A DNA stretch of 10,547 nt from Candidatus Hydrogenedentota bacterium. Its GTDB lineage: Bacteria > Hydrogenedentota > Hydrogenedentia > Hydrogenedentales > SLHB01. The stretch spans positions 1-10,547 of the forward strand of contig BTWA01000071.1 of assembly GCA_045863295.1 (NCBI GenBank), in the 5' to 3' direction. Under the pieces are notes generated by a model. The model ran no database searches and was not told where the DNA came from. It was given only the letters and a program-made list of their open reading frames with translations. Below are positions 1-10,547 of the stretch, piece after piece. Numbering within the stretch: position 1 is the first letter of the stretch; every line of letters begins with the position of its first letter. The translations under genes were made by a program, and so were the position numbers.

Positions 1-282
1 AATACACGTACTACATGTAATGCAAACCCGATTTCTTAGTTTGCCTTTCCGAGTGGCCAAGGTAGATTCACCGAACGGTCGCAAGGCTTCGCAACTGTGT
101 TTCACGCAAGTCAGCTTGACGATCGCTCGTCTTTGGCACGGACCACGTGCGCCTCAAGCGAAAACGTCGGGCGGAGGTTGATCGTTGGGTTGAGCGCCAA
201 TCACTCTTGAAACACTCTCAATCTCCCTGCCGCTTCACCAGTGTACGGACGGCGTGGTACGCCGGCCGCAGGAGCGGCTTCA

Positions 283-1200
283 ATGGCGATCAATCAGCAA
301 AGCAAGCGGGTCCTTCGGGACTTGGCCGACTATCGCATCCTGAGCACCTCGCATATCGCGCACCTTTACGGGCGAGGGCGCCGATCGGCTCGCGGCACCA
401 TAGAGAGTCTCTGCAAACGGGGCTACGCGGAATCGTTGCCGGGATTCTCGGGCGAGAGCGGCGGACGCCCGGAGAACGTATTCGGATTGAGCAAGACTGG
501 ACATCGTCTCCTGATCGACGATGGGGTTATTCCTGGTGAGGTCCCCTACGAAGCTGCGTCCGGCCACGCGCTCCTGAAGGAGATCCATCACCAGATGCTC
601 CTCAACTCTGCGCGGATTCATCTCGAATATGCGTGCCGGCAACTGACGCGCCTGGAGTGTCTCTTCTTGACGGCGAATTCCCCGTTCACGTGGAACGCTG
701 ATGATGGTACTTCCTTTGTTCGGGAGGAGGTGGTGTTGCCGGAGAACGGACGAACCAAGGGCCTGGTTCCGGACGCCGTCTTCTTACTGAAGCACCGCCG
801 CTCCTCCGAGGGCGTGCTCTTCTTCCTCGAGGTCGACATGGGTACTGAGCCGTTCACTCGTTCGGACAACGGACAGTCAAATATCCAAGACAAGGTCGCT
901 CGTTACAAAGCCTACTTTTGGTCTGGGGAATACCGGATTAAATACGAGGCGCGTTGGTGGGTTCCCCTACGTGGATTCCGTACGCTCTTTCTCGCCGCGG
1001 ATCAGGGTCGCGCCCGCCAACTGGCCCATCATCTCGCAACGCTCCGCCCGTCAGGTTTCTGCTGGGTGACCGACAAAGACCAAATGGAAGCGCGCGGTAT
1101 CAGCGGCAAGATCTGGCTGACCGGGGACAACTCGGAGCAGACCGAATCCATGTTCGACCACTACGCCGCCGACCTCCCGCTTCCCGCGTTGCGCGACTGA
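283..1200 (+). CDS. Replication-relaxation (Replic_Relax-like) family protein, putative relaxase/replication initiator
   Basis: N-terminal wHTH-like segment (LRDLADYRILSTSHIAHL...LCKRGY...VFGLSKTG), then IHHQMLLN, LVPDAVF and FFLEVDMGTE motifs typical of Replic_Relax proteins. AGGAG SD at 270-274 precedes ATG 283; the ORF track starts at GTG 241. Confidence 0.8.
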   Translation: MAINQQSKRVLRDLADYRILSTSHIAHLYGRGRRSARGTIESLCKRGYAESLPGFSGESGGRPENVFGLSKTGHRLLIDDGVIPGEVPYEAASGHALLKEIHHQMLLNSARIHLEYACRQLTRLECLFLTANSPFTWNADDGTSFVREEVVLPENGRTKGLVPDAVFLLKHRRSSEGVLFFLEVDMGTEPFTRSDNGQSNIQDKVARYKAYFWSGEYRIKYEARWWVPLRGFRTLFLAADQGRARQLAHHLATLRPSGFCWVTDKDQMEARGISGKIWLTGDNSEQTESMFDHYAADLPLPALRD

Positions 1201-2033: not shown

Positions 2034-2254
2034 CCGCAGGCGTTGCTATCCATAGCTTATTAAAGTTTTGATTTCGCGGAACGGTTTGGGGGAGCTGTCG
2101 GCTTCGATGGTTTGTTTTGGCGTTCCGCGTTTTTGTCGAAGCCGTCTGCTCATTTCCGATGGCGCAGGCGTTCAGCCCGCTGGCGTGTCCTGGTGTCTGG
2201 CTCCGCTGCCGGGGGATTTACCTTCCCCACGGGGTAAATCCCTGGAGGTTGAGC

Positions 2255-2584
2255 ATGAGAGCAACACAAACAAATATTTCCGGCTCGGGTGGTGTACCAA
2301 GGCTTGGCGAGGACGAGGGTTGGTATTTGTGTCCGAGATGTCCCCGGTGTCTGTCCATTGCTGGGCATTGGCGTGGGGTTCGGTTTCGGAAGCGGAAGGG
2401 TCCTGTGCATAGGCGGTGCTGTACGCGGTGCACCCAGTGGTTTTTCGCTGAGTTGGAAAGTGACCTGCCGTTGACGGCCAGTAGAGGTCTGGACGTAGCG
2501 GATGACCTCGCGTTGGACGCGGAGGAATCCAGTGGGGACGTGACGGCTTTAGAGGCGTCGAATGGCGATGTCAGAAGCCGTTGA
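2255..2584 (+). CDS. Small Zn-ribbon protein (CPRC...CTRC) with acidic tail
   Basis: GGAGGT at 2244-2249 before ATG 2255; two CxxC motifs; 109 aa. Confidence 0.55.
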   Translation: MRATQTNISGSGGVPRLGEDEGWYLCPRCPRCLSIAGHWRGVRFRKRKGPVHRRCCTRCTQWFFAELESDLPLTASRGLDVADDLALDAEESSGDVTALEASNGDVRSR

Positions 2585-2728
2585 GCGTCCGAGGAAGCAG
2601 TTGTGCCTGCGTTGCTGGCGACTGTTTTCCGAGCGTGGGGACAGGCAGCCGGTCTGCTATCCCTGTCAGGAGCAGACCCGTCTGCACGAGTTTGTTCAAT
2701 TTGGCCCAAGTGGCCGGAGGTAAACACC

Positions 2729-3001
2729 ATGGAAAAGGAGAAACAAAGACCTGAGAAAAAGTTCCGAGTAGGCGCCATTGCCGCGTCAGTCTGGAAGCGC
2801 GTGAACACCACTTCAGATGGCCGAAGTTTCGAGGCCTATCAGGTGAGTCTGGATAGGACGTGGCTTGACAAGGATGGACAGTACCGCAGCAGCAATACGT
2901 ATGGAATGAATGATATTCCGAAGGCGGTTTTGGCGATGGAGCAGGCGTATGAGTACATCGCCACGAAGTCTTCGGACGGCGATGGCAAGGAACAAGATTA
3001 G
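2729..3001 (+). CDS. Small hypothetical protein, putative PC4/Whirly-like ssDNA-binding fold
   Basis: GGAGGT at 2716-2721 before ATG 2729. Pattern PEKKFRVGAIAASVW...VSLDRTWLDKDGQYRSSNTY..NDIPKAVLAMEQAYEYI gives aromatic beta-strands plus a C-terminal helix. The fold is inferred, not searched. Confidence 0.8.
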   Translation: MEKEKQRPEKKFRVGAIAASVWKRVNTTSDGRSFEAYQVSLDRTWLDKDGQYRSSNTYGMNDIPKAVLAMEQAYEYIATKSSDGDGKEQD

Positions 3002-3031
3002 GGAGGGGCAAATAGGCCTCTTTCCCTCTTT
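3000..3031 (+). terminator. Possible intrinsic terminator or stem-loop
   Basis: AGGGAGGGGC / GCCTCTTTCCCT imperfect stem directly after the stop codon, with a weak T tail. Confidence 0.35.
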
Positions 3032-3107
3032 CGTCGTTTCCAATGAGCAGTTCGCAGTCTCACGGGATTTGCTCGACAGTGCGAAGCAAATCCCGGAGGT
3101 GGGACAA

Positions 3108-3395
3108 ATGACGAAGTACATAAACACGAACGAAAACAAGCCAGCTATGAGCGCTTACTTTGGCAGGTTTCAGGTGAGCGTGTGGGAATGGCGCAAGGTG
3201 GTCAGTGCGCCAGAGTCAGAGAGAGATTTCAAGCCGGAACGTGAATACGTGTGCCGGAGGGCGTGTATCAGGCACAGCCGTTGGGACAAGGTGGTTGGCG
3301 TTTGGGATAGGCAACTCATTTGGTGCAATGAGCACGAGTTGGAGAGCCTGAAGAAGGCCTTGGATATTTTCTTCAGTGAACGGCCGCCAGAGTGA
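3108..3395 (+). CDS. Small hypothetical protein, probable distant paralog of 2729-3001
   Basis: GGAGGT at 3095-3100 before ATG 3108. KP..SAYFGRFQVSVW...RACIRHSRWDK..G.W....IWC...EL..L..AL parallels the preceding protein. Confidence 0.7.
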   Translation: MTKYINTNENKPAMSAYFGRFQVSVWEWRKVVSAPESERDFKPEREYVCRRACIRHSRWDKVVGVWDRQLIWCNEHELESLKKALDIFFSERPPE

Positions 3396-3409
3396 TTCGG
3401 CAGCGTTTG

Positions 3410-3431
3410 CCCCGCCGGGAGCCCGGCGGGG
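3410..3431 (+). other. GC-rich perfect inverted repeat (stem-loop)
   Basis: CCCCGCCGGG (3410-3419) AG CCCGGCGGGG (3422-3431). A second small hairpin CCTGTG-ACTA-CACAGG lies at 3439-3454. Confidence 0.7.
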
Positions 3432-3485
3432 TCACTGGCCTGTGACTACACAGGTTTATATAGCGCGTGATTATTCGCTCCCAGT

Positions 3486-4598
3486 ATGGACTTATTGCTC
3501 CGAGTATGGGACGTGTATCCATGGGCGGTCGATCTCTGCCTCTACTTCTTTCTCTTTGCTGCTGCCGCCCGTGTGTCCTTCGCAAAGATTTACCCTGGCC
3601 ACGAGGGGCGGATGCTTGCCGCCGCGATCGGGATCGTTCTCGCGGCGGGCCTAACCATCGCACAACGCAAGATCGGCTTCTCACTCGAGTCCCTCGGGCC
3701 CATCGCCGCCGTGCTGCTCTGCGTCATTGTCTTCATCGTGGCCTACCGCCTACTGAGCCATTCCGAGCTACCGCCCTGGGTGCGCATCTCGTTCTCCATA
3801 TTCTTTGCATTGGGACTCATTCGCATCGCGCTGCCCGATTACACCTCCCGGTTGATACGTGACAATCCTGGTCTCGTGCTGTTTGCATTGGCGGCGTTGG
3901 CATTTTGGATGTGGCAGAGCGCGTCACAGGGTTCCGAGTTCTTCCGCCGAAGGCTGCCTGGGTTCGCATTGGAGCGATTCAAGATGGTCCCTGAGAGCCA
4001 GACTCTCAGAAAGGAGCACCGGGTCGCGAACAAAAGGCTTAGACACGAGACTGCGGAAAACGTCAAAGAGACCAAGAAGGTTGGCAGCGGTCTGAGCGCA
4101 GCCATACACCTGCTCGAGTCTGGAGGGTTTTCGCCCAAAACCACTCCCAAGATAGTGAAACTTCTCGACGGGGCACGAGCCCAGACCAAGCGTTTGGAAT
4201 CACGGTGTGACAGTGTGCGGCAGGTCGATGAGGCCTTGCAGCGTTTCGATTGGAAGTGGTTCCAGCGCATGCGCAATGTTCACCTCGGACAGTTGACTCC
4301 TGCCCAGCAGGATATTCTCAAACGAAGCGCGCTCGAAGAGCGGCGCCGTTTGAATGTGGAGAGCGTATTGAAGGAACTGGAGACCGATGCTGGCCATCGA
4401 TTGCGCGTATTGGAGCAACACTTGGATAAGGCGGTCGAGAGCATCCGGGCGTCGAACGCCGCGGCTGCCCTGGGTTGGCTTCGGGAAGCGAAGACCGAAG
4501 AAGAGCACTTGTTGCAGATTGAAGAAAAGGTACTGGACCTAGAACGCCGGCTTATACGATTGGTATCGCGGCAGACCAGTGAACAACTTCACCGATAA
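3486..4598 (+). CDS. Membrane protein with about 5 N-terminal TM helices and a long charged helical/coiled-coil C-terminus
   Basis: 370-aa ORF; hydrophobic segments within the first ~145 aa; E/K/R/L-rich helical C-terminal half; no SD. Confidence 0.85.
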   Translation: MDLLLRVWDVYPWAVDLCLYFFLFAAAARVSFAKIYPGHEGRMLAAAIGIVLAAGLTIAQRKIGFSLESLGPIAAVLLCVIVFIVAYRLLSHSELPPWVRISFSIFFALGLIRIALPDYTSRLIRDNPGLVLFALAALAFWMWQSASQGSEFFRRRLPGFALERFKMVPESQTLRKEHRVANKRLRHETAENVKETKKVGSGLSAAIHLLESGGFSPKTTPKIVKLLDGARAQTKRLESRCDSVRQVDEALQRFDWKWFQRMRNVHLGQLTPAQQDILKRSALEERRRLNVESVLKELETDAGHRLRVLEQHLDKAVESIRASNAAAALGWLREAKTEEEHLLQIEEKVLDLERRLIRLVSRQTSEQLHR

Positions 4599-4711
4599 CA
4601 TCTGTGTTCTCCTTTTCGTTTCGTCTTTTGGCAAACTCTATTGCTTCTAGGATGAGCTCTGCGTTTCTTTTGAATCTACCCGGTAGGATTCAAAAGAAAC
4701 GAGGTGAGACC

Positions 4712-5206
4712 ATGGAAATTGCCGCCATCAAACGCATAAGGAAGGGAGACCTTGTACTGTGTGTCGGACGACGGGAGACCGACGGGGAGCGAGTCGTCTC
4801 GCTGGGCAGAATGGGCGAAATCGCGAACAAGAGCACAGACTTCTTCACCGGTCCGGAACTGGATACCCTATTCAGTACGTTGCTGAAAGATAGGCGCAGC
4901 GACTTTCGCATACCCTTCACGTCCAGCCGCGCCGTCGCAAAGGATGACAGCCATTACAGCGAGGAGCGGACGTACTGGGAGATACGCCGCGCCATTGAAG
5001 AAGTACGAGAAGCAGACCTATCTGAGGCGGGCAGTCGAAATAGTCGGGTCACCATGACGGTGGTCAGCCCGATGCCCAAGTTCACATGGGCACACACTTG
5101 CCGAAAATGTGGATGCCACGTCGAATCCCAACTCCGCATGTACGGCACTGCCCTCAAGCTTTGCCCGAACTGCCAGTTTGTTCACGCAGCGTCACCAGGA
5201 GCCTGA
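4712..5206 (+). CDS. Hypothetical protein with C-terminal Zn-ribbon (CRKC...CPNC)
   Basis: GAGGTG at 4701-4706 before ATG 4712; 164 aa; paired CxxC motifs near the C-terminus. Confidence 0.7.
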   Translation: MEIAAIKRIRKGDLVLCVGRRETDGERVVSLGRMGEIANKSTDFFTGPELDTLFSTLLKDRRSDFRIPFTSSRAVAKDDSHYSEERTYWEIRRAIEEVREADLSEAGSRNSRVTMTVVSPMPKFTWAHTCRKCGCHVESQLRMYGTALKLCPNCQFVHAASPGA

Positions 5207-5508
5207 GTTCAACCGCCGCGGTCCAGAGGCGCCGAGCAGCGCTCGCAGCAATACTGCGCTCCTGTTCACCGCACCCACGGTCCTCCTCCGGGAGCCACAA
5301 TAGCCAGGCGCCCGGCACGCCTCCATCGTATCGCGGGTTTTGTTTTCAAGCCGTTGTGTACCTCCGCCGGTTTTCATGGTGTGACCGCGGAAACAGGGAT
5401 TCATTGAGATTTCCCCCTCTCGGGGCCGCCAGGTTTGCCTGAAATCTCATGACCCCGTTCCCTTTACCCGGTCCCATGAAAACCGAACATACGGAGGTAC
5501 ACACGAAA

Positions 5509-5796
5509 ATGAAAACAAACAAAACCCGCGAAGAAGAATTGGCGTGCCGAGCGCCTGAGGACCTCTGGCAAGACGAGAGCGTCTCGCCCGAGGAACTCAT
5601 TCGGCTTGACCCGTGCAATGAGGTGATTGACCTGCTGAAGCTCGCAGGCTTCATTACCCCCATTGACGGGTTCATCGCCGAACTCCCGGAGGACCCGTGG
5701 ACCACGCGGCAAGAGGACCTTTGGCTAAGGACCCTCAAGCCGCTTGGCGGTGAACAGGAGACGCCAGAAGCGTTCTGCAAGAGAGTCCGGGGATAA
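5509..5796 (+). CDS. Small acidic hypothetical protein (95 aa)
   Basis: GGAGGT at 5493-5498, ATG at 5509, stop inside a terminator-like hairpin; no recognisable motif. Confidence 0.55.
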   Translation: MKTNKTREEELACRAPEDLWQDESVSPEELIRLDPCNEVIDLLKLAGFITPIDGFIAELPEDPWTTRQEDLWLRTLKPLGGEQETPEAFCKRVRG

Positions 5797-5815
5797 TCCC
5801 GGCTCTCTTTTTTTT
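5779..5815 (+). terminator. Intrinsic terminator-like hairpin with T-tract
   Basis: AAGAGAG-T-CCGGG GATAAT CCCGG-CTCTCTT running into a T8 tract (5808-5815). Confidence 0.65.
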
Positions 5816-5978
5816 GCTGCGAGCGCTGAAGCGAGCATTGGATTCCCCACTGGAATCCAAGCGCACAAGCGGTTTTCCACTGTCGCGGAAAACCGAAACT
5901 CACTCATGCTGGTGAGTTGGACGCGCTTCTGCTTCCTTGCGTCCGCGGAGCAGAAGCGCTCCGTGGAGGAAGATAATC

Positions 5979-6185
5979 ATGCCGAGGCAAAGGTACGAAG
6001 ATGCCGAATTCAGAATCACGACAATTCTTGGACGAGAGGATTGCCCGAAATGCGGATGCCGCCGCAGCCGAATGGTAAGTGAGCGAATCAGTTGGCGCTA
6101 CAGGGTTGTCATCGAGCAACGAAGGTGCAGCAAATGCGGATACGTCTATGTTGGCGAGCGGGCATATGGAAAACTGATTTGGTGA
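5979..6185 (+). CDS. Small Zn-ribbon protein (CPKC...CSKC), 68 aa
   Basis: GGAGGA at 5965-5970 before ATG 5979; CPKCG and CSKCGY motifs. Confidence 0.7.
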   Translation: MPRQRYEDAEFRITTILGREDCPKCGCRRSRMVSERISWRYRVVIEQRRCSKCGYVYVGERAYGKLIW

Positions 6186-6302
6186 CCCAACCCAAGTCGA
6201 AACAGTATCCGCTGACCCACGCAGGTGTCTAGCCTCTCCTGGAATTGGACAGTCTTGAAATTGGTAAAAGAGACTGAGTCCGACCTAGGAGGAGTAGCAC
6301 GG

Positions 6303-6634
6303 ATGTGCGAAGAGAAACATACCCGGCGTCAGTTTATGTCGGAAGACAAAGCCGCGACGGTGAAGCGGCATGTGGTCGGCGGCGAGGCGGTATCGTCGAT
6401 CTGTGAGGACCTGGGCGTTGCCCCGAACCTGTTCTACCGCTGGCAGCAGGAGTTGTTCGATAACGCGGCGGCGGCCTTCGAGGTGAAGGGCCGGTGCCGG
6501 CGGCCGGATGCCAAGGCGCGCACGCTTGAGCGGGAAAACAAGAAGCTGCGCTCGAAGTTGGCGCACAAAGACAACGTGATCGCGGAGATCACGGAGGATT
6601 ATGTGAAGTTAAAAAAACACTTGGCGAGGGTTGA
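6303..6634 (+). CDS. IS3-family transposase OrfA (HTH). Canonical end at 6634 is reached only by a -1 shift at the A7 tract; in frame it runs to 6818
   Basis: GGAGGAG SD before ATG 6303. RRQF..EDK...V...GGEAVSSICEDLGVAPNLFYRWQ HTH, then a leucine-zipper-like LERENKKLRSKL; A-tract at 6611-6617. Confidence 0.8.
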
Positions 6635-7605
6635 AGGATGTGTGGACAGAACCGGACGTGCGGGACGAGGTGGTGGATTTCGTGGCCACGCTAAAGGAAA
6701 AGATGGGCATCAGCCAGAGCCGGCTGGTGCGCTGGGTCGGCATTGGCCGCTCGAAGTTCTACGCCTGGAAGCAGCGCTATGGCAAGGTGAACGCACACAA
6801 CGGTCAAGTTTCGCGTGACTTCTGGCTCATGGATTGGGAGCACGAGGCGATTCTGGCCTATTTCATTGACCATCCTTTCGAGGGCTACCGCCGATTGACG
6901 TACATGATGATGGACGAGGATCTCGTGGCGGCCTCGCCCGCCACGGTCTACCGCAGCCTGCAGAAGGCCGGGGTCTTGGACCGCCGCGACGTGAAAGCGT
7001 CGAAGAGGGGCACGGGCTTCCACCAGCCTTTACAGGCGCATGAGCATTGGCATATCGACGTGACCTACTTCAATCTGAGCGGCACCTTTTACTACCTCTG
7101 CTCGGTGCTTGACGGCTTCAGCCGTTACATCATGCACTGGGACATCAAGGAGGCGATGAAAGAGGAAGACGTGGAGTTGATCGTGCAGAATGCGCTGGAG
7201 CAATTTCCCGATGTGAAGCCGCGACTCATCTCAGACAACGGCCCGCAATTCGTGGCCAAGGACTTCAAGGAGTTCATCCGGCTCTCGGGTGTGACGCACG
7301 TGCGCACCAGCCCGTACTATCCCCAAGCGAACGGAAGGCAGGAACGCATGCAGGGTACAGTCAAGCGAGAGTGCATCCGCGAGAAATGCCCCCTTACGGT
7401 GGAGGAAGCTAAACGCTGGGTTGGCGAATACATCGAGCACTACAATACCGCTCGCTTGCACTCCGCCATTGGCTACGTGACACCCCTGGACATGCTCGAA
7501 GGTCGCCAGGCGACCATCCATGCCGAGCGCGACCGGAAGTTGGCCGAGGCCCGCGATCAACGTAGGCAACGAAGACAGTTGAATCACGAACCAACCGTCG
7601 CGTAA
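6631..7605 (+). CDS. IS3-family transposase OrfB (DDE integrase core)
   Basis: WHIDVTY, LISDNGPQF and NGRQERMQGTVKRE catalytic DDE motifs; YNTARLHSAIGYVTP C-terminal motif. Confidence 0.95.
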   Translation: MKDVWTEPDVRDEVVDFVATLKEKMGISQSRLVRWVGIGRSKFYAWKQRYGKVNAHNGQVSRDFWLMDWEHEAILAYFIDHPFEGYRRLTYMMMDEDLVAASPATVYRSLQKAGVLDRRDVKASKRGTGFHQPLQAHEHWHIDVTYFNLSGTFYYLCSVLDGFSRYIMHWDIKEAMKEEDVELIVQNALEQFPDVKPRLISDNGPQFVAKDFKEFIRLSGVTHVRTSPYYPQANGRQERMQGTVKRECIREKCPLTVEEAKRWVGEYIEHYNTARLHSAIGYVTPLDMLEGRQATIHAERDRKLAEARDQRRQRRQLNHEPTVA

Positions 7606-8441: not shown

Positions 8442-8588
8442 ACCGGTCTTAGAAACTCCCGCCCGAAGGGCGGAACAAGTCCTTAACTGGCGTGAATGGA
8501 TTGTCCGATTCCCGCTGAGGCAAGACAGCAGGTAGATCGCCGGACCTCTGTCCTGACAAGCGGGACAGAGGTCCTGGAGGAGAAAACA

Positions 8589-8858: not shown

Positions 8859-8897
8859 ACGAATGCAGCCTATGAGCGACCTGAATTCGTTTGACTC
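8852..8897. terminator. Stem-loop between convergent genes (possible bidirectional terminator)
   Basis: GAGTTGAACGAAT / ATTCGTTTGACTC, 13 bp including two G-T wobbles; overlaps both stop codons; no T-tract. Confidence 0.4.
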
Positions 8898-10547
8898 ATC
8901 CCGAGTAACTCCATCCGACCATGAAGTCAGCGAAGGTTTGGACAGGTACAGATAGCCCTGTTTTTTCGTGAATGCTGTGCTTCAGCCGCGCCGCGACTTC
9001 TGGTGTCGGCGTGACCACGTGGACGTCGGTGTAGCCCGCAGTCTGTGTTTGTTTGAGGTTGTGGAGGTAGTTGCTCTTTCCAGTCTCCACCAGCACGCAG
9101 CACAGTCGTCCATCCACTTCCGCGTGGACATCGACAATCAGGTTATCTGCGATTGGATGCTCCGTCTTCACGTGCCAGCCGTCGGCACGAAAGCGTTCGG
9201 CGACCCGACGCACGATAAAGCGATGAAGGACGCCACCCTCGGTATGACTGGGCAATGCGCCGAGTTGGGCGCGTCGGCATAAACGTAAACCGTTTTCTGT
9301 CAGATCGAAGAGCTTCAATTGAGACGTGCCCGTATAAACGAGCACAGGTTTCGTCAGTCCCTGCGCCTCGAGGGCGCGAAGTACGGCCGCGGCTTTGCGC
9401 CGGCTCAGCCCCAGGCGCTTGAGGCGTTCGACTACCCCGCTGAAGGGGTTCTGGACAATGTCTTTGAACACGAGCGCTTCGCACTCGGTGAGGGGATATT
9501 CTTGGTCGACGATTGCTTTCCCTGGGGTGGTGGGCGGGGGTGAAACAGTCGGCTGAGTGATAGCCGATTTGCCTGGGGAGGCCGATTCCTTATTCGTCGT
9601 TTCTTTAACGTCTGGCGGCGGAATCGGCGGAACTGGTCTCGACTTTGGTAATGCGGCCAGGTAATTACCGGATTCAGCGGAATACCAGTTCCTTGCCATG
9701 TATTGAGCGAGATCGGTGTCGGAAACGCTTCCCTTGGGGATTGGACGATATTCCAGCACGATGTGTAACGGGTCATGACACCGGGGTAAACGAATGATGG
9801 CTTCGCCTACGGGAAGCCGGCCGAGTTCGTCCTTGGCCTCGTCTTTGAGAAGCATGGCCTGTGCGGTACTCGTTACGTCGCGCTGATGCTTTGTGTGAAA
9901 AGCGAGTGTCGTGGCCTGATTTCCGAAGACAGGCAGTGGGACCATGCTTCCATTCTGGCTCGCCAGAACGACCGCAACGCCCAATTCGCGCACTTCGCGC
10001 AACAAGCCGTGAATCACGGGTTCCGAACCATCGCCTATCCCTGGTGGACTTCGAAGCAGGTGGTGCGCTTCTTCGATGAAGAGCGCATGAACCAGTTCTT
10101 CACGATTACGGTTGTTGTGCATGAAGTGCTGGAGCACGTAGACAAGCACGGATTCACTCAAGAGAGTGGCCTCCGCTACGTTGAGCAGTTCGATCTCCAG
10201 TACCATACGACGGCGTAGTAGCTTGGATAGGTCAAGGGGATTCTCCGAACAAAACACGTCTGCGGCGTTTCCAGATGTGAGACTTTGCATTGCCCTCCGT
10301 GCCGAGTCCATCCACAGAGCGCGGCGTCCTCGAGCACGCATTTCTTCCAAGATCGTGTGTACATCTCTGAAGGTGGGCCATCGGCTTTCCTTGGCAGCGT
10401 TCACGTATGCCTGCTGAATCGCCGTAACCAGGAGGCTTTCACTTCCGGCCCCTTGCATGAAGGCATGACTGACGAGGCCCGTGATGCGTTTACTCCATAC
10501 ATCGGTTGTGGTACCGCTTGGTGGGATGAGTGGATTGAACGCGAATG
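8896..10547 (-). CDS. HerA/VirB4/VirD4-like (DUF87-type) P-loop ATPase fused to wHTH and PD-(D/E)xK-like domain; 5' end lies outside the window
   Basis: The frame stays open to the window edge (FAFNPLIPPSG...W upstream of M at 10458). Walker B LFIEEAH, LREVRELGVAVVLASQ motif, LPVGEAI motif, Pro-rich linker, wHTH (LGLSRRK...LEAQGL...LFDLTENG), then H-helix and VDV...VETGKS. Confidence 0.85.
   Translation of the reverse strand, partial: FAFNPLIPPSGTTTDVWSKRITGLVSHAFMQGAGSESLLVTAIQQAYVNAAKESRWPTFRDVHTILEEMRARGRRALWMDSARRAMQSLTSGNAADVFCSENPLDLSKLLRRRMVLEIELLNVAEATLLSESVLVYVLQHFMHNNRNREELVHALFIEEAHHLLRSPPGIGDGSEPVIHGLLREVRELGVAVVLASQNGSMVPLPVFGNQATTLAFHTKHQRDVTSTAQAMLLKDEAKDELGRLPVGEAIIRLPRCHDPLHIVLEYRPIPKGSVSDTDLAQYMARNWYSAESGNYLAALPKSRPVPPIPPPDVKETTNKESASPGKSAITQPTVSPPPTTPGKAIVDQEYPLTECEALVFKDIVQNPFSGVVERLKRLGLSRRKAAAVLRALEAQGLTKPVLVYTGTSQLKLFDLTENGLRLCRRAQLGALPSHTEGGVLHRFIVRRVAERFRADGWHVKTEHPIADNLIVDVHAEVDGRLCCVLVETGKSNYLHNLKQTQTAGYTDVHVVTPTPEVAARLKHSIHEKTGLSVPVQTFADFMVGWSYSG

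Follow-up and report, generated by a model that had tools for sequence, protein, structure and literature searches.

A small protein-coding gene of a mobile element from the phylum Hydrogenedentota, ORF95, is preceded by a non-coding leader that mirrors it block by block, and leader and gene together are predicted to zip into a single nested rod of 592 nt (5237-5828; Table 1). The window that we analysed is the whole of contig C71 (10,547 nt), which belongs to a 6.3-Mb genome of 88 contigs (G000). The initial annotation had described the fold-back as eight perfectly nested helices. A complementarity search combined with an MFE fold located all eight in position, with helix 4 complementary at only 94%. 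In the MFE structure of 5230-5835, 450 of 606 nt (74%) are paired, which is what the earlier wording of almost every base being paired amounts to; within the leader, 135 of the 177 bases pair with position 5441 or beyond. Burial of the SD and pairing of the codons just past the start were both recovered (helices 6 and 5), and 16 of the 20 nt spanning SD and ATG are paired in this prediction. The CDS segments that the leader skips do fold on themselves: the two that had been pointed out, 5600-5682 and 5706-5743, are seen along with others as local hairpins. The outermost helix indeed passes the T-tract, its 3' arm starting at the last two T of the run and continuing for 13 nt, and the ORF95 stop codon lies inside the terminator loop.

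Table 1 Features of the fold-back and of the element around it (positions in the window).
Feature	Position	Strand	Details
Replic_Relax (PF13814) protein	241..1200	+	E 7.6e-20
164-aa protein gene	4712..5206	+	ORF, start with hairpin and SD; C-terminal CxxC...CxxC zinc ribbon
Non-coding leader (5' arm)	5237..5413	+	Block-wise antisense of the SD with start codon, of CDS parts and of the post-terminator flank
Helix 1 (outermost)	5237-5251/5814-5828		15 bp, 100% complementary
Helix 2	5259-5272/5747-5760		14 bp
Helix 3	5284-5294/5683-5693		11 bp
Helix 4	5305-5321/5541-5557		17 nt, 94% complementary
Helix 5	5331-5345/5517-5531		15 bp
Helix 6	5356-5366/5492-5502		11 bp, spans SD GGAGGT 5493-5498
Helix 7	5368-5379/5474-5485		12 bp
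Helix 8	5405-5413/5441-5449		9 bp
Apical module	5383..5473	+	Asymmetric motif, GGATTCATTGAGATTTC (5397-5413) opposite GAAATCTCATGACC (5441-5454)
Ribosome-binding region	5492..5511	+	SD GGAGGT 5493-5498, ATG 5509-5511; anti-SD at 5356-5366
ORF95	5509..5796	+	95 aa, acidic soluble protein; SD GGAGGT 5493-5498
CDS local hairpins filling the leader gaps	5558..5777	+	5562-5593, 5600-5682, 5706-5743, 5765-5777; MFE helices
Intrinsic terminator	5779..5815	+	Stem 5779-5809, then eight T at 5808-5815
3' partner of outermost helix	5814..5828	+	Beyond the terminator; complementary to 5237-5251
Conserved two-hairpin intergenic module	5829..5895	+	Hairpins 5838-5860 and 5870-5895; directly 3' of the unit
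HerA/CedD-like DNA-translocating ATPase	8896..10545	-	Truncated by contig end; NCBIfam CedD E 8.8e-9, under the curated cut-off

We confirmed the fold-back, which is clearly biological. Its folding energy lies far below that of shuffled sequences in dinucleotide- and codon-preserving comparisons alike, and under both RNA and DNA parameters. Against 20 dinucleotide shuffles of 5230-5835, the RNA MFE is -338.5 kcal/mol compared with -211.6 +/- 8.9 kcal/mol (z -14.2; 0 of 20 as good). Folded as DNA, the + strand reaches -196.4 kcal/mol and its shuffles -101.7 kcal/mol (z -16.0). The - strand gives z -21.9 as RNA and z -19.6 as DNA. Synonymous-codon shuffles that keep both the protein and its codon usage still leave z -8.5, and uniform synonymous recoding leaves z -10.8 (100 shuffles each), so that the protein sequence does not account for the pairing. 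The fold-back is the sole outlier among 600-nt segments scanned along the contig, and a search of both strands of the whole window against Rfam 15 matched no known family (0 at E<=1).

Relatives share the fold-back. An ORF95 HMM found the gene in six of 135 Hydrogenedentota genomes, all of one family, and a second copy in two of these (G027b and G036b) brings the total to eight; since the G036b copy is cut by a contig end, seven are complete. The leader folds against the SD and the gene in all seven, with 71-139 long-range leader-to-gene pairs per copy (six copies; G027b was checked separately) and 116-149 complementary positions per copy in the arm-to-arm alignment. Shuffle z-scores cover G000 and one relative, G011, whose RNA fold reaches z -22.0. 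Every copy has an SD, an ATG and a terminator, the SD/anti-SD helix (9-14 bp) is likewise universal and often extends over the ATG, and a hairpin with T-run stands 3' of the ORF in all copies read. The helices themselves are built from wholly different sequences, for example CTCCTGTTCACCGC/GCGGTGAACAGGAG in G000 and CTCTCTTCCGCCGT/ATGGCGGAAGAGAG in G011. When the G000 structure is mapped on G011 (77% DNA identity), 142 of 225 pairs are unchanged and 27 are double compensatory changes, the remainder being single changes or gaps. The earlier contention that a simple inverted duplication does not suffice is borne out by pairing that different sequences retain in 7/7 complete copies. A MAFFT/RNAalifold consensus of six apical regions had a poor covariation term because the distant copies are unalignable by sequence, and we used per-copy folds instead.

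Complementary arms might also persist without any function, as a neutral or selfish DNA by-product: on this view an ancient, incomplete inverted duplication would stay complementary through template switching within the molecule. Such template-switch correction of quasipalindromes is established, hardly any pairs here depart from Watson-Crick, and the paired sites have diverged at about the same rate as other positions of the gene. Against this origin, which we consider very improbable, the fold-back is kept in copies whose proteins are just 23-32% identical, the leader is block-wise, omits exactly the self-folding segments and forms perfect runs of at most 18 bp, and a useless silencing hairpin on a conserved gene would come at a cost.

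The apex of the rod is less uniform. Its module contains two small hairpins (5414-5425 and 5430-5441) and is almost invariant between G000 and G011. In each of five of the 135 genomes the exact pattern TTCATTGNNATTT...AAATNNCATG occurs a single time, at this locus and nowhere else; in metagenome contigs, an exact search with 24 nt of the apex gave no match. In copies G027a and G122 the motif is missing and the apex is short, so the fold-back, rather than its apex, is the constant feature.

ORF95 is, judging by the way it evolves, a real protein gene of unknown function. Compared with the G011 copy it has a dN/dS of 0.30, with differences mostly at third codon positions (17/19/33 by position). 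The 6-7 close homologues are all 93-95 aa long, six of them at 63-72% identity. A profile search of 1.84 billion representatives returned 83 clusters at E<=1e-3, 48 of them at <=1e-10; these are metagenomic, mostly 60-150 aa (median about 100), and among ten that were looked up two carried a name, in both cases just 'hypothetical protein'. ORF95 has no family match in Pfam, PHROG or NCBIfam and none among PDB sequences, and its scores against the Atlas are low only. Its product has a pI of 4.46, a GRAVY of -0.62, 21 D+E compared with 12 K+R, and a longest hydrophobic run of five residues. The AF2 model is all-helical at moderate confidence (pLDDT 69, pTM 0.34), and at E<=0.001 Foldseek matched it to nothing in PDB or BFVD. 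One of three readings put forward at the outset, a large ncRNA, would make the ORF accidental and could appeal to the high structure z-scores and to the only moderately confident model. It is disfavoured because ORF95 evolves as a protein, in its dN/dS, its constant length and its 83 clusters; the SD, ATG and terminator in every copy and the empty Rfam search also weigh against it, and we find it hardly credible. The two other readings, a locked mRNA and an ssDNA structure, remain and stand near level.

The source organism is an uncultured sludge bacterium, which named protein matches assign to Candidatus Hydrogenedentes. The Replic_Relax domain near the left end of the window is found in MOB_C-class relaxases (excerpt of PMC5357655) and has a PD-(D/E)XK fold (excerpt of PMC3424549). 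At the other end, the truncated ATPase is 63% identical to a 721-aa DUF87/HerA protein of the G011 element, which also encodes Cdc6-like, ParA and UvrD-like proteins. The G011 element lies in a defence island, with BREX, AbiEii-like and STAND genes around it and no T4SS gene within +/-30 kb, and carries an IS21 between its zinc-ribbon gene and the leader. In the window, the small genes from 2255 to 6185 are all co-oriented, several of them with zinc ribbons, so that one strand serves as template for all. The last of these genes before the leader encodes the 164-aa protein, of which a homologue stands upstream of the fold-back in seven of the eight copies. This protein gave only weak zinc-ribbon matches and no PDB relative, and its AF2 model is poor (pLDDT 51) and unusable. 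We found no homologous DNA outside the phylum set in the metagenome, genome and viral contigs searched, and blastn with 5200-5900 as query was negative against 72,556 plasmid and 50,697 phage records.

The mechanism that we consider most likely, though only tentatively, is that ORF95 is a self-locking gene: in the mRNA, its leader would hide the ribosome-binding site together with the start codon. We prefer it because this burial physically follows for any transcript that contains the leader. The leader would act as a cis-encoded antisense image of the gene. A transcript carrying both would fold during synthesis, from the apex outwards, enclosing the SD, the start codon and most of the CDS in a rod of 9-18-bp helices while other CDS pieces fold on themselves. 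The locked mRNA would be compact and translationally silent, and ORF95 would be made only once the lock is opened or bypassed. Release could occur by a factor that binds the conserved apical motif, a role for which the zinc-ribbon protein encoded next door suggests itself, by nuclease processing, or through a leaderless transcript starting inside the apex. Co-transcription of the leader, silencing as its selected function and the manner in which the lock is released are inferences.

Several observations are consistent with a self-locking mRNA. The RNA z-scores are extreme in both G000 and G011, the anti-SD/SD helix is in all copies, and the structure is conserved through compensatory change and is built from different sequences in the seven complete copies. 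In G000 the first helix begins 31 nt past the stop of the 164-aa gene and we found no terminator between that gene and the leader, so any operon transcript must fold the leader on the gene. Among 83 perfect arm-to-arm runs the longest is 18 bp and none reaches 20 bp, which fits avoidance of long perfect dsRNA; RNase III has a length requirement for its dsRNA substrates. At neighbouring genes of the element, hairpins end 0-1 nt before the SD, a position that is meaningful at the RNA level alone. In a B. subtilis reporter, a single anti-SD-like 8-mer hundreds of nt away pairs with the RBS and shuts translation, and natural genes avoid such sequences (excerpt of PMC12697547). Here, by comparison, an anti-SD helix of 11-14 bp and some 100 more pairs are actively conserved.

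The closest RNA parallels are the hok and aapA1 mRNAs, whose full-length folds are untranslatable until 3' processing (excerpt of PMC5416894). The hok/Sok and aapA1/IsoA1 systems share with the fold predicted for the present locus a compact whole mRNA, an SD sequestered by a distant sequence and a mobile-element setting, and in them the 5' end pairs with the 3' region (same excerpt). In contrast to their membrane peptides of under 60 aa, ORF95 is 95 aa, acidic and soluble; whereas they have an antisense RNA partner, a consensus scan found no antisense RNA promoter here; the lock here is a dedicated leader of ~180 nt that mirrors the gene block by block, at about twice the overall length; and the helix that would pair the ends here has its 3' arm (5814-5828) past the T-run. 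Mobile elements also offer a protein-controlled parallel: in the com-mom operon of phage Mu, a zinc-finger protein opens a translation-inhibiting stem. There, too, a zinc-finger or zinc-ribbon gene lies directly upstream and co-oriented, and the downstream start is buried in a stem beside a conserved hairpin, but the Mu stem is one short hairpin and no sequence relation is known. By this analogy the 164-aa protein might bind the apex, which is pure conjecture.

Other features speak against a self-locking mRNA. The 15-bp outermost helix needs sequence past the T-run and is thus out of reach for a terminated mRNA. Any unlocking factor is conjectural, and the product is unlike a type I toxin. The pairing is almost purely Watson-Crick. 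The share of G.U among MFE pairs is 4.5% for the + strand and 7.8% for the - strand; for comparison, RNase P and tmRNA of the same genome have 9.7% and 6.4%, and background pieces 9-13%. The arm-to-arm alignments cover 850 positions and contain 83 mismatches. On the + strand, 56 of these are hard, that is, of the most destabilising types (A.C 19, C.T 18, A.A 11, C.C 8), and 27 are soft (G.T 7, A.G 11, T.T 5, G.G 4), whereas 42.9 and 40.1 would be expected from arm composition (p 0.004); if selection favoured a stable sense RNA, the deviation should run the other way. The same 56 mismatches, taken on the - (template) strand, become soft (G.T 19, G.A 18, T.T 11, G.G 8) and 27 are hard. The 1x1 internal loops point the same way, with 12 A.C compared with one G.T on the + strand (p 0.003-0.009). 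The mismatch positions differ between G000 and G011, and so look transient rather than designed.

This strand bias favours the template strand, and we grade it as suggestive only because several tests were tried. Two of them were null: single-side changes from G000 to G011 gave 11 G.U and 12 A.C, and internal G.U in long helices numbered 29 compared with 17, which is not significant. Hairpins outside the fold-back contain too few mismatches for the test (A.C 3, G.T 1). The MFE of the - strand is lower in 7/7 complete copies, and we dropped this asymmetry as evidence: most of the native gap in G000 (29.9 kcal/mol) is already present between shuffles (23.6 kcal/mol), and the gap follows the local base skew along the contig.

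A bias of this kind would be expected if the molecule that folds is the template DNA strand. A possible reading, somewhat more doubtful than the self-locking mRNA, is that the - strand folds while the element is single-stranded after relaxase-like nicking, in transfer or rolling-circle-type replication. The complement of the leader would then be a built-in second strand of the gene, and the rod could rebuild a duplex for early transcription, or prime or delay complementary-strand synthesis, like the Frpo/ssi/ssp elements of F-like plasmids. The DNA folds are far better than shuffles on both strands and especially on the - strand, the pairing is almost exclusively Watson-Crick, and the mismatches and 1x1 loops are of the kinds that the - strand tolerates. 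The helices that enclose the terminator are present not only in G000 but also in G011, G122 and G120, an arrangement that is natural for DNA and not for a terminated RNA. The element has a MOB_C-type relaxase domain, its G011 copy adds a UvrD-like helicase, and the co-oriented small genes share a single template strand. A precedent exists in known ssDNA promoter stem-loops, from which early genes are expressed and at which synthesis of the complementary strand halts until UvrD acts (excerpts of PMC11541004, PMC12672017 and bioRxiv 10.64898/2026.01.09.698686). However, we found no sigma-70-like -35/-10 pair on either strand of 5200-5830, where the phylum's own promoter consensus may differ, and in G027a and G122 the distance from loop to SD is only about 20 nt, too short for a promoter. 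The T4SS-free surroundings of the G011 element do not suggest transfer, the strand evidence is uneven as described, with a - strand MFE advantage that is mostly compositional, and it is not obvious why a structural DNA element should hold a protein gene.

Soft mismatches on the - strand would also suit an RNA made from that strand, since they are of RNA-tolerated types. A structured antisense RNA of ~600 nt could regulate ORF95 through loop-loop contacts, and the - strand does fold slightly better. But a consensus scan of the - strand from 5830 to 6200 found no promoter-like site, the region is preceded on that strand by a terminator-like hairpin (5918-5897), and there is no Rfam match; we judge such an RNA highly unlikely. 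Two further candidates were set aside. A '-10-like' GAAAAT beside the SD, seen by eye in most copies, was not used, as it reads GAAAAC in G000 and has no -35 partner. An ORF runs through each leader and was considered as a coupling ORF; it was rejected because few stops are to be expected anyway opposite a GC-rich ORF.

The analogies that had been drawn to Frpo/ssi and to hok/aapA stand as likenesses and fail as membership. Frpo/ssi/ssp are intergenic stem-loops of 50-350 nt that rebuild a -35/-10, drive early leading-region genes, and can prime complementary-strand synthesis or stall it until UvrD acts (excerpts of PMC11541004, PMC12672017 and bioRxiv 10.64898/2026.01.09.698686). The fold-back resembles these elements of F-like and IncI plasmids in being a big predicted stem-loop upstream of small co-oriented genes, in an element with a relaxase-type gene, and its DNA fold of -196 to -210 kcal/mol is well under the -75 kcal/mol threshold used for mining them. 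Unlike them, it spans 592 nt and encloses SD, CDS and terminator rather than being intergenic, the scan found no promoter boxes in it, and it shows no DNA similarity to the plasmid records searched. From hok/aapA it is set apart by its 95-aa acidic product and by the consensus scan, which found no antisense promoter. The fold-back thus belongs to neither group and may work like one of them. The sso of rolling-circle plasmids is a non-coding hairpin; it is strand-specific and carries conserved motifs of RNAP-binding and terminator type, whereas the fold-back unit is coding. In the literature searched, with partial coverage, we came across no account of a gene that pairs with a mirror-image leader and no paper on Hydrogenedentota mobile elements, one review mentioning the phylum in passing.

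A self-locking mRNA and a template-strand ssDNA fold are not mutually exclusive. They could be combined in a two-state cassette, which we regard as unlikely, in which transcripts from dsDNA are locked and ORF95 is expressed only from the folded single strand during its brief existence, as a zygotic-induction switch that rests on a single complementarity. Once the template strand is displaced as ssDNA or has entered a cell, leader and gene would zip into a quasi-duplex; transcription of this duplex would begin at the apex and leave out the leader, and the RNA would be shed as the rod re-forms. Hairpin-templated correction would keep the Watson-Crick pairing near-perfect.

Bacterial genes normally avoid even one distant anti-SD, whereas here a whole gene is kept paired with a dedicated mirror-image leader across diverged relatives. 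If the RNA lock is true, it would be the most extensive cis-antisense translational lock known, and the guarded product would be soluble rather than a membrane toxin, which would suggest that its timing is critical for the mobile element. If instead the ssDNA fold is true, the ssDNA-promoter idea would extend from enterobacterial intergenic hairpins to a folded gene in an uncultured phylum. Either way, the locus offers a compact testable model in which protein-coding and structural constraints co-evolve over 600 nt.

Logan contigs from sequencing libraries overlap part of the unit. RNA-library contigs of 151 nt cover 5569-5719 and 5729-5878, in two rows that look like one data set filed twice, and a third library ('probably DNA') covers 5491-5770. 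The leader is uncovered by these contigs, whose depth of ~2 comes without strand or end information and counts neither for nor against transcription, read-through or a start near 5491.

Downstream of the unit, an IS3 element and a GNAT gene (6225 to about 8530) form an insertion that is absent from a diverged second copy of the element on contig C83 of the same genome. A metagenome contig without IS3/GNAT joins 6224 straight to the hairpin at 8542. The two-hairpin module directly 3' of the fold-back also recurs at other loci, including a 48-nt identical copy at the start of C83.

Downstream of the fold-back lies a conserved two-hairpin module (see table), in which GCGGGY is followed by a hairpin, then GCCCAC and a second hairpin of the form CGGTTYTCY...RGARAACCG. 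Since the module sits 3′ of each terminator and 5′ of the next gene, it occupies the site where a promoter would be expected. On by-eye reading, several copies retain the same C.A opposition in the enclosing stem; this would become a G.T wobble if the other strand were read.

Most small genes of the mobile element are preceded by a perfect hairpin of 11-15 bp, whose 3′ arm stops 0-1 nt 5′ of the SD. The same hairpin type occurs at three related loci in the phylum (L007, L008 and L014). At such gene starts the order is hairpin, GAGGTG, about 6 nt and ATG. This repeated start architecture could stabilise the 5′ end, mark a site of processing or be bound by a protein.

Features of the element and their coordinates (C83, another contig of the same genome; L numbers, related loci in genomes of the phylum)
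Feature	Location	Remarks
Two-hairpin module	window 5829-5895; C83 1-48 (L002); also L007, L009, L010, L014	conserved
Pre-SD hairpins	window 2213-2243, 3063-3095, 4662-4701, 5923-5959, 8542-8574	
Insertion	window 6225 to about 8530	IS3-family transposase pair (6225-7605) and GNAT acetyltransferase gene

Neither the element's second copy, on C83, nor a metagenome contig in which 6224 is joined directly to the 8542 hairpin contains the IS3 and GNAT insertion.

Positions 1351-2250 of the window display extreme strand asymmetry: GC skew reaches +0.33, and AT skew falls as low as -0.40. For 600-nt segments, the minimum free energy here is about -211 kcal/mol for the plus strand, whereas the minus strand yields -105 to -136. 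This region takes in the sole minus-strand endonuclease-like gene and the intergenic stretch 2033-2255, in which an inverted repeat spans 2092-2151; the region might correspond to an origin or oriT.

Two proteins of about 90 aa (2729-3001 and 3108-3395) have in common a beta-like "V-W-x-x-R/K" motif, which reminded us of small ssDNA-binding folds; no database match supported such a fold for either. The 68-aa zinc-ribbon protein (5979-6185) gave sub-threshold matches to TIGR04165, a family of Cys-rich peptides (E 4.6e-8), and to the Lar family of restriction-alleviation proteins (E 0.003), similarities that we treat as leads only.

Fold-back genes recur in other Hydrogenedentota genomes. G027 (L014) carries two tandem paralogs, at 947-1324 and about 2200-2810, one of which lacks the apical motif. 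Two diverged copies are found on separate contigs of G036 (L009, L018), where an extra hairpin 5′ of the leader holds the apical motif with its halves in swapped order. The G011 element, which includes Cdc6-like, ParA and UvrD-like genes, resides within a defence island (contig C20, 101-161 kb; L011, L019, L020) containing the BREX genes BrxL, BrxB and an Eco57I/MmeI-type N6-adenine methylase resembling BREX PglX, together with an AbiEii-like ATPase and an NB-ARC/WD40 STAND protein. In this genome, an IS21 lies between the zinc-ribbon gene and the leader.
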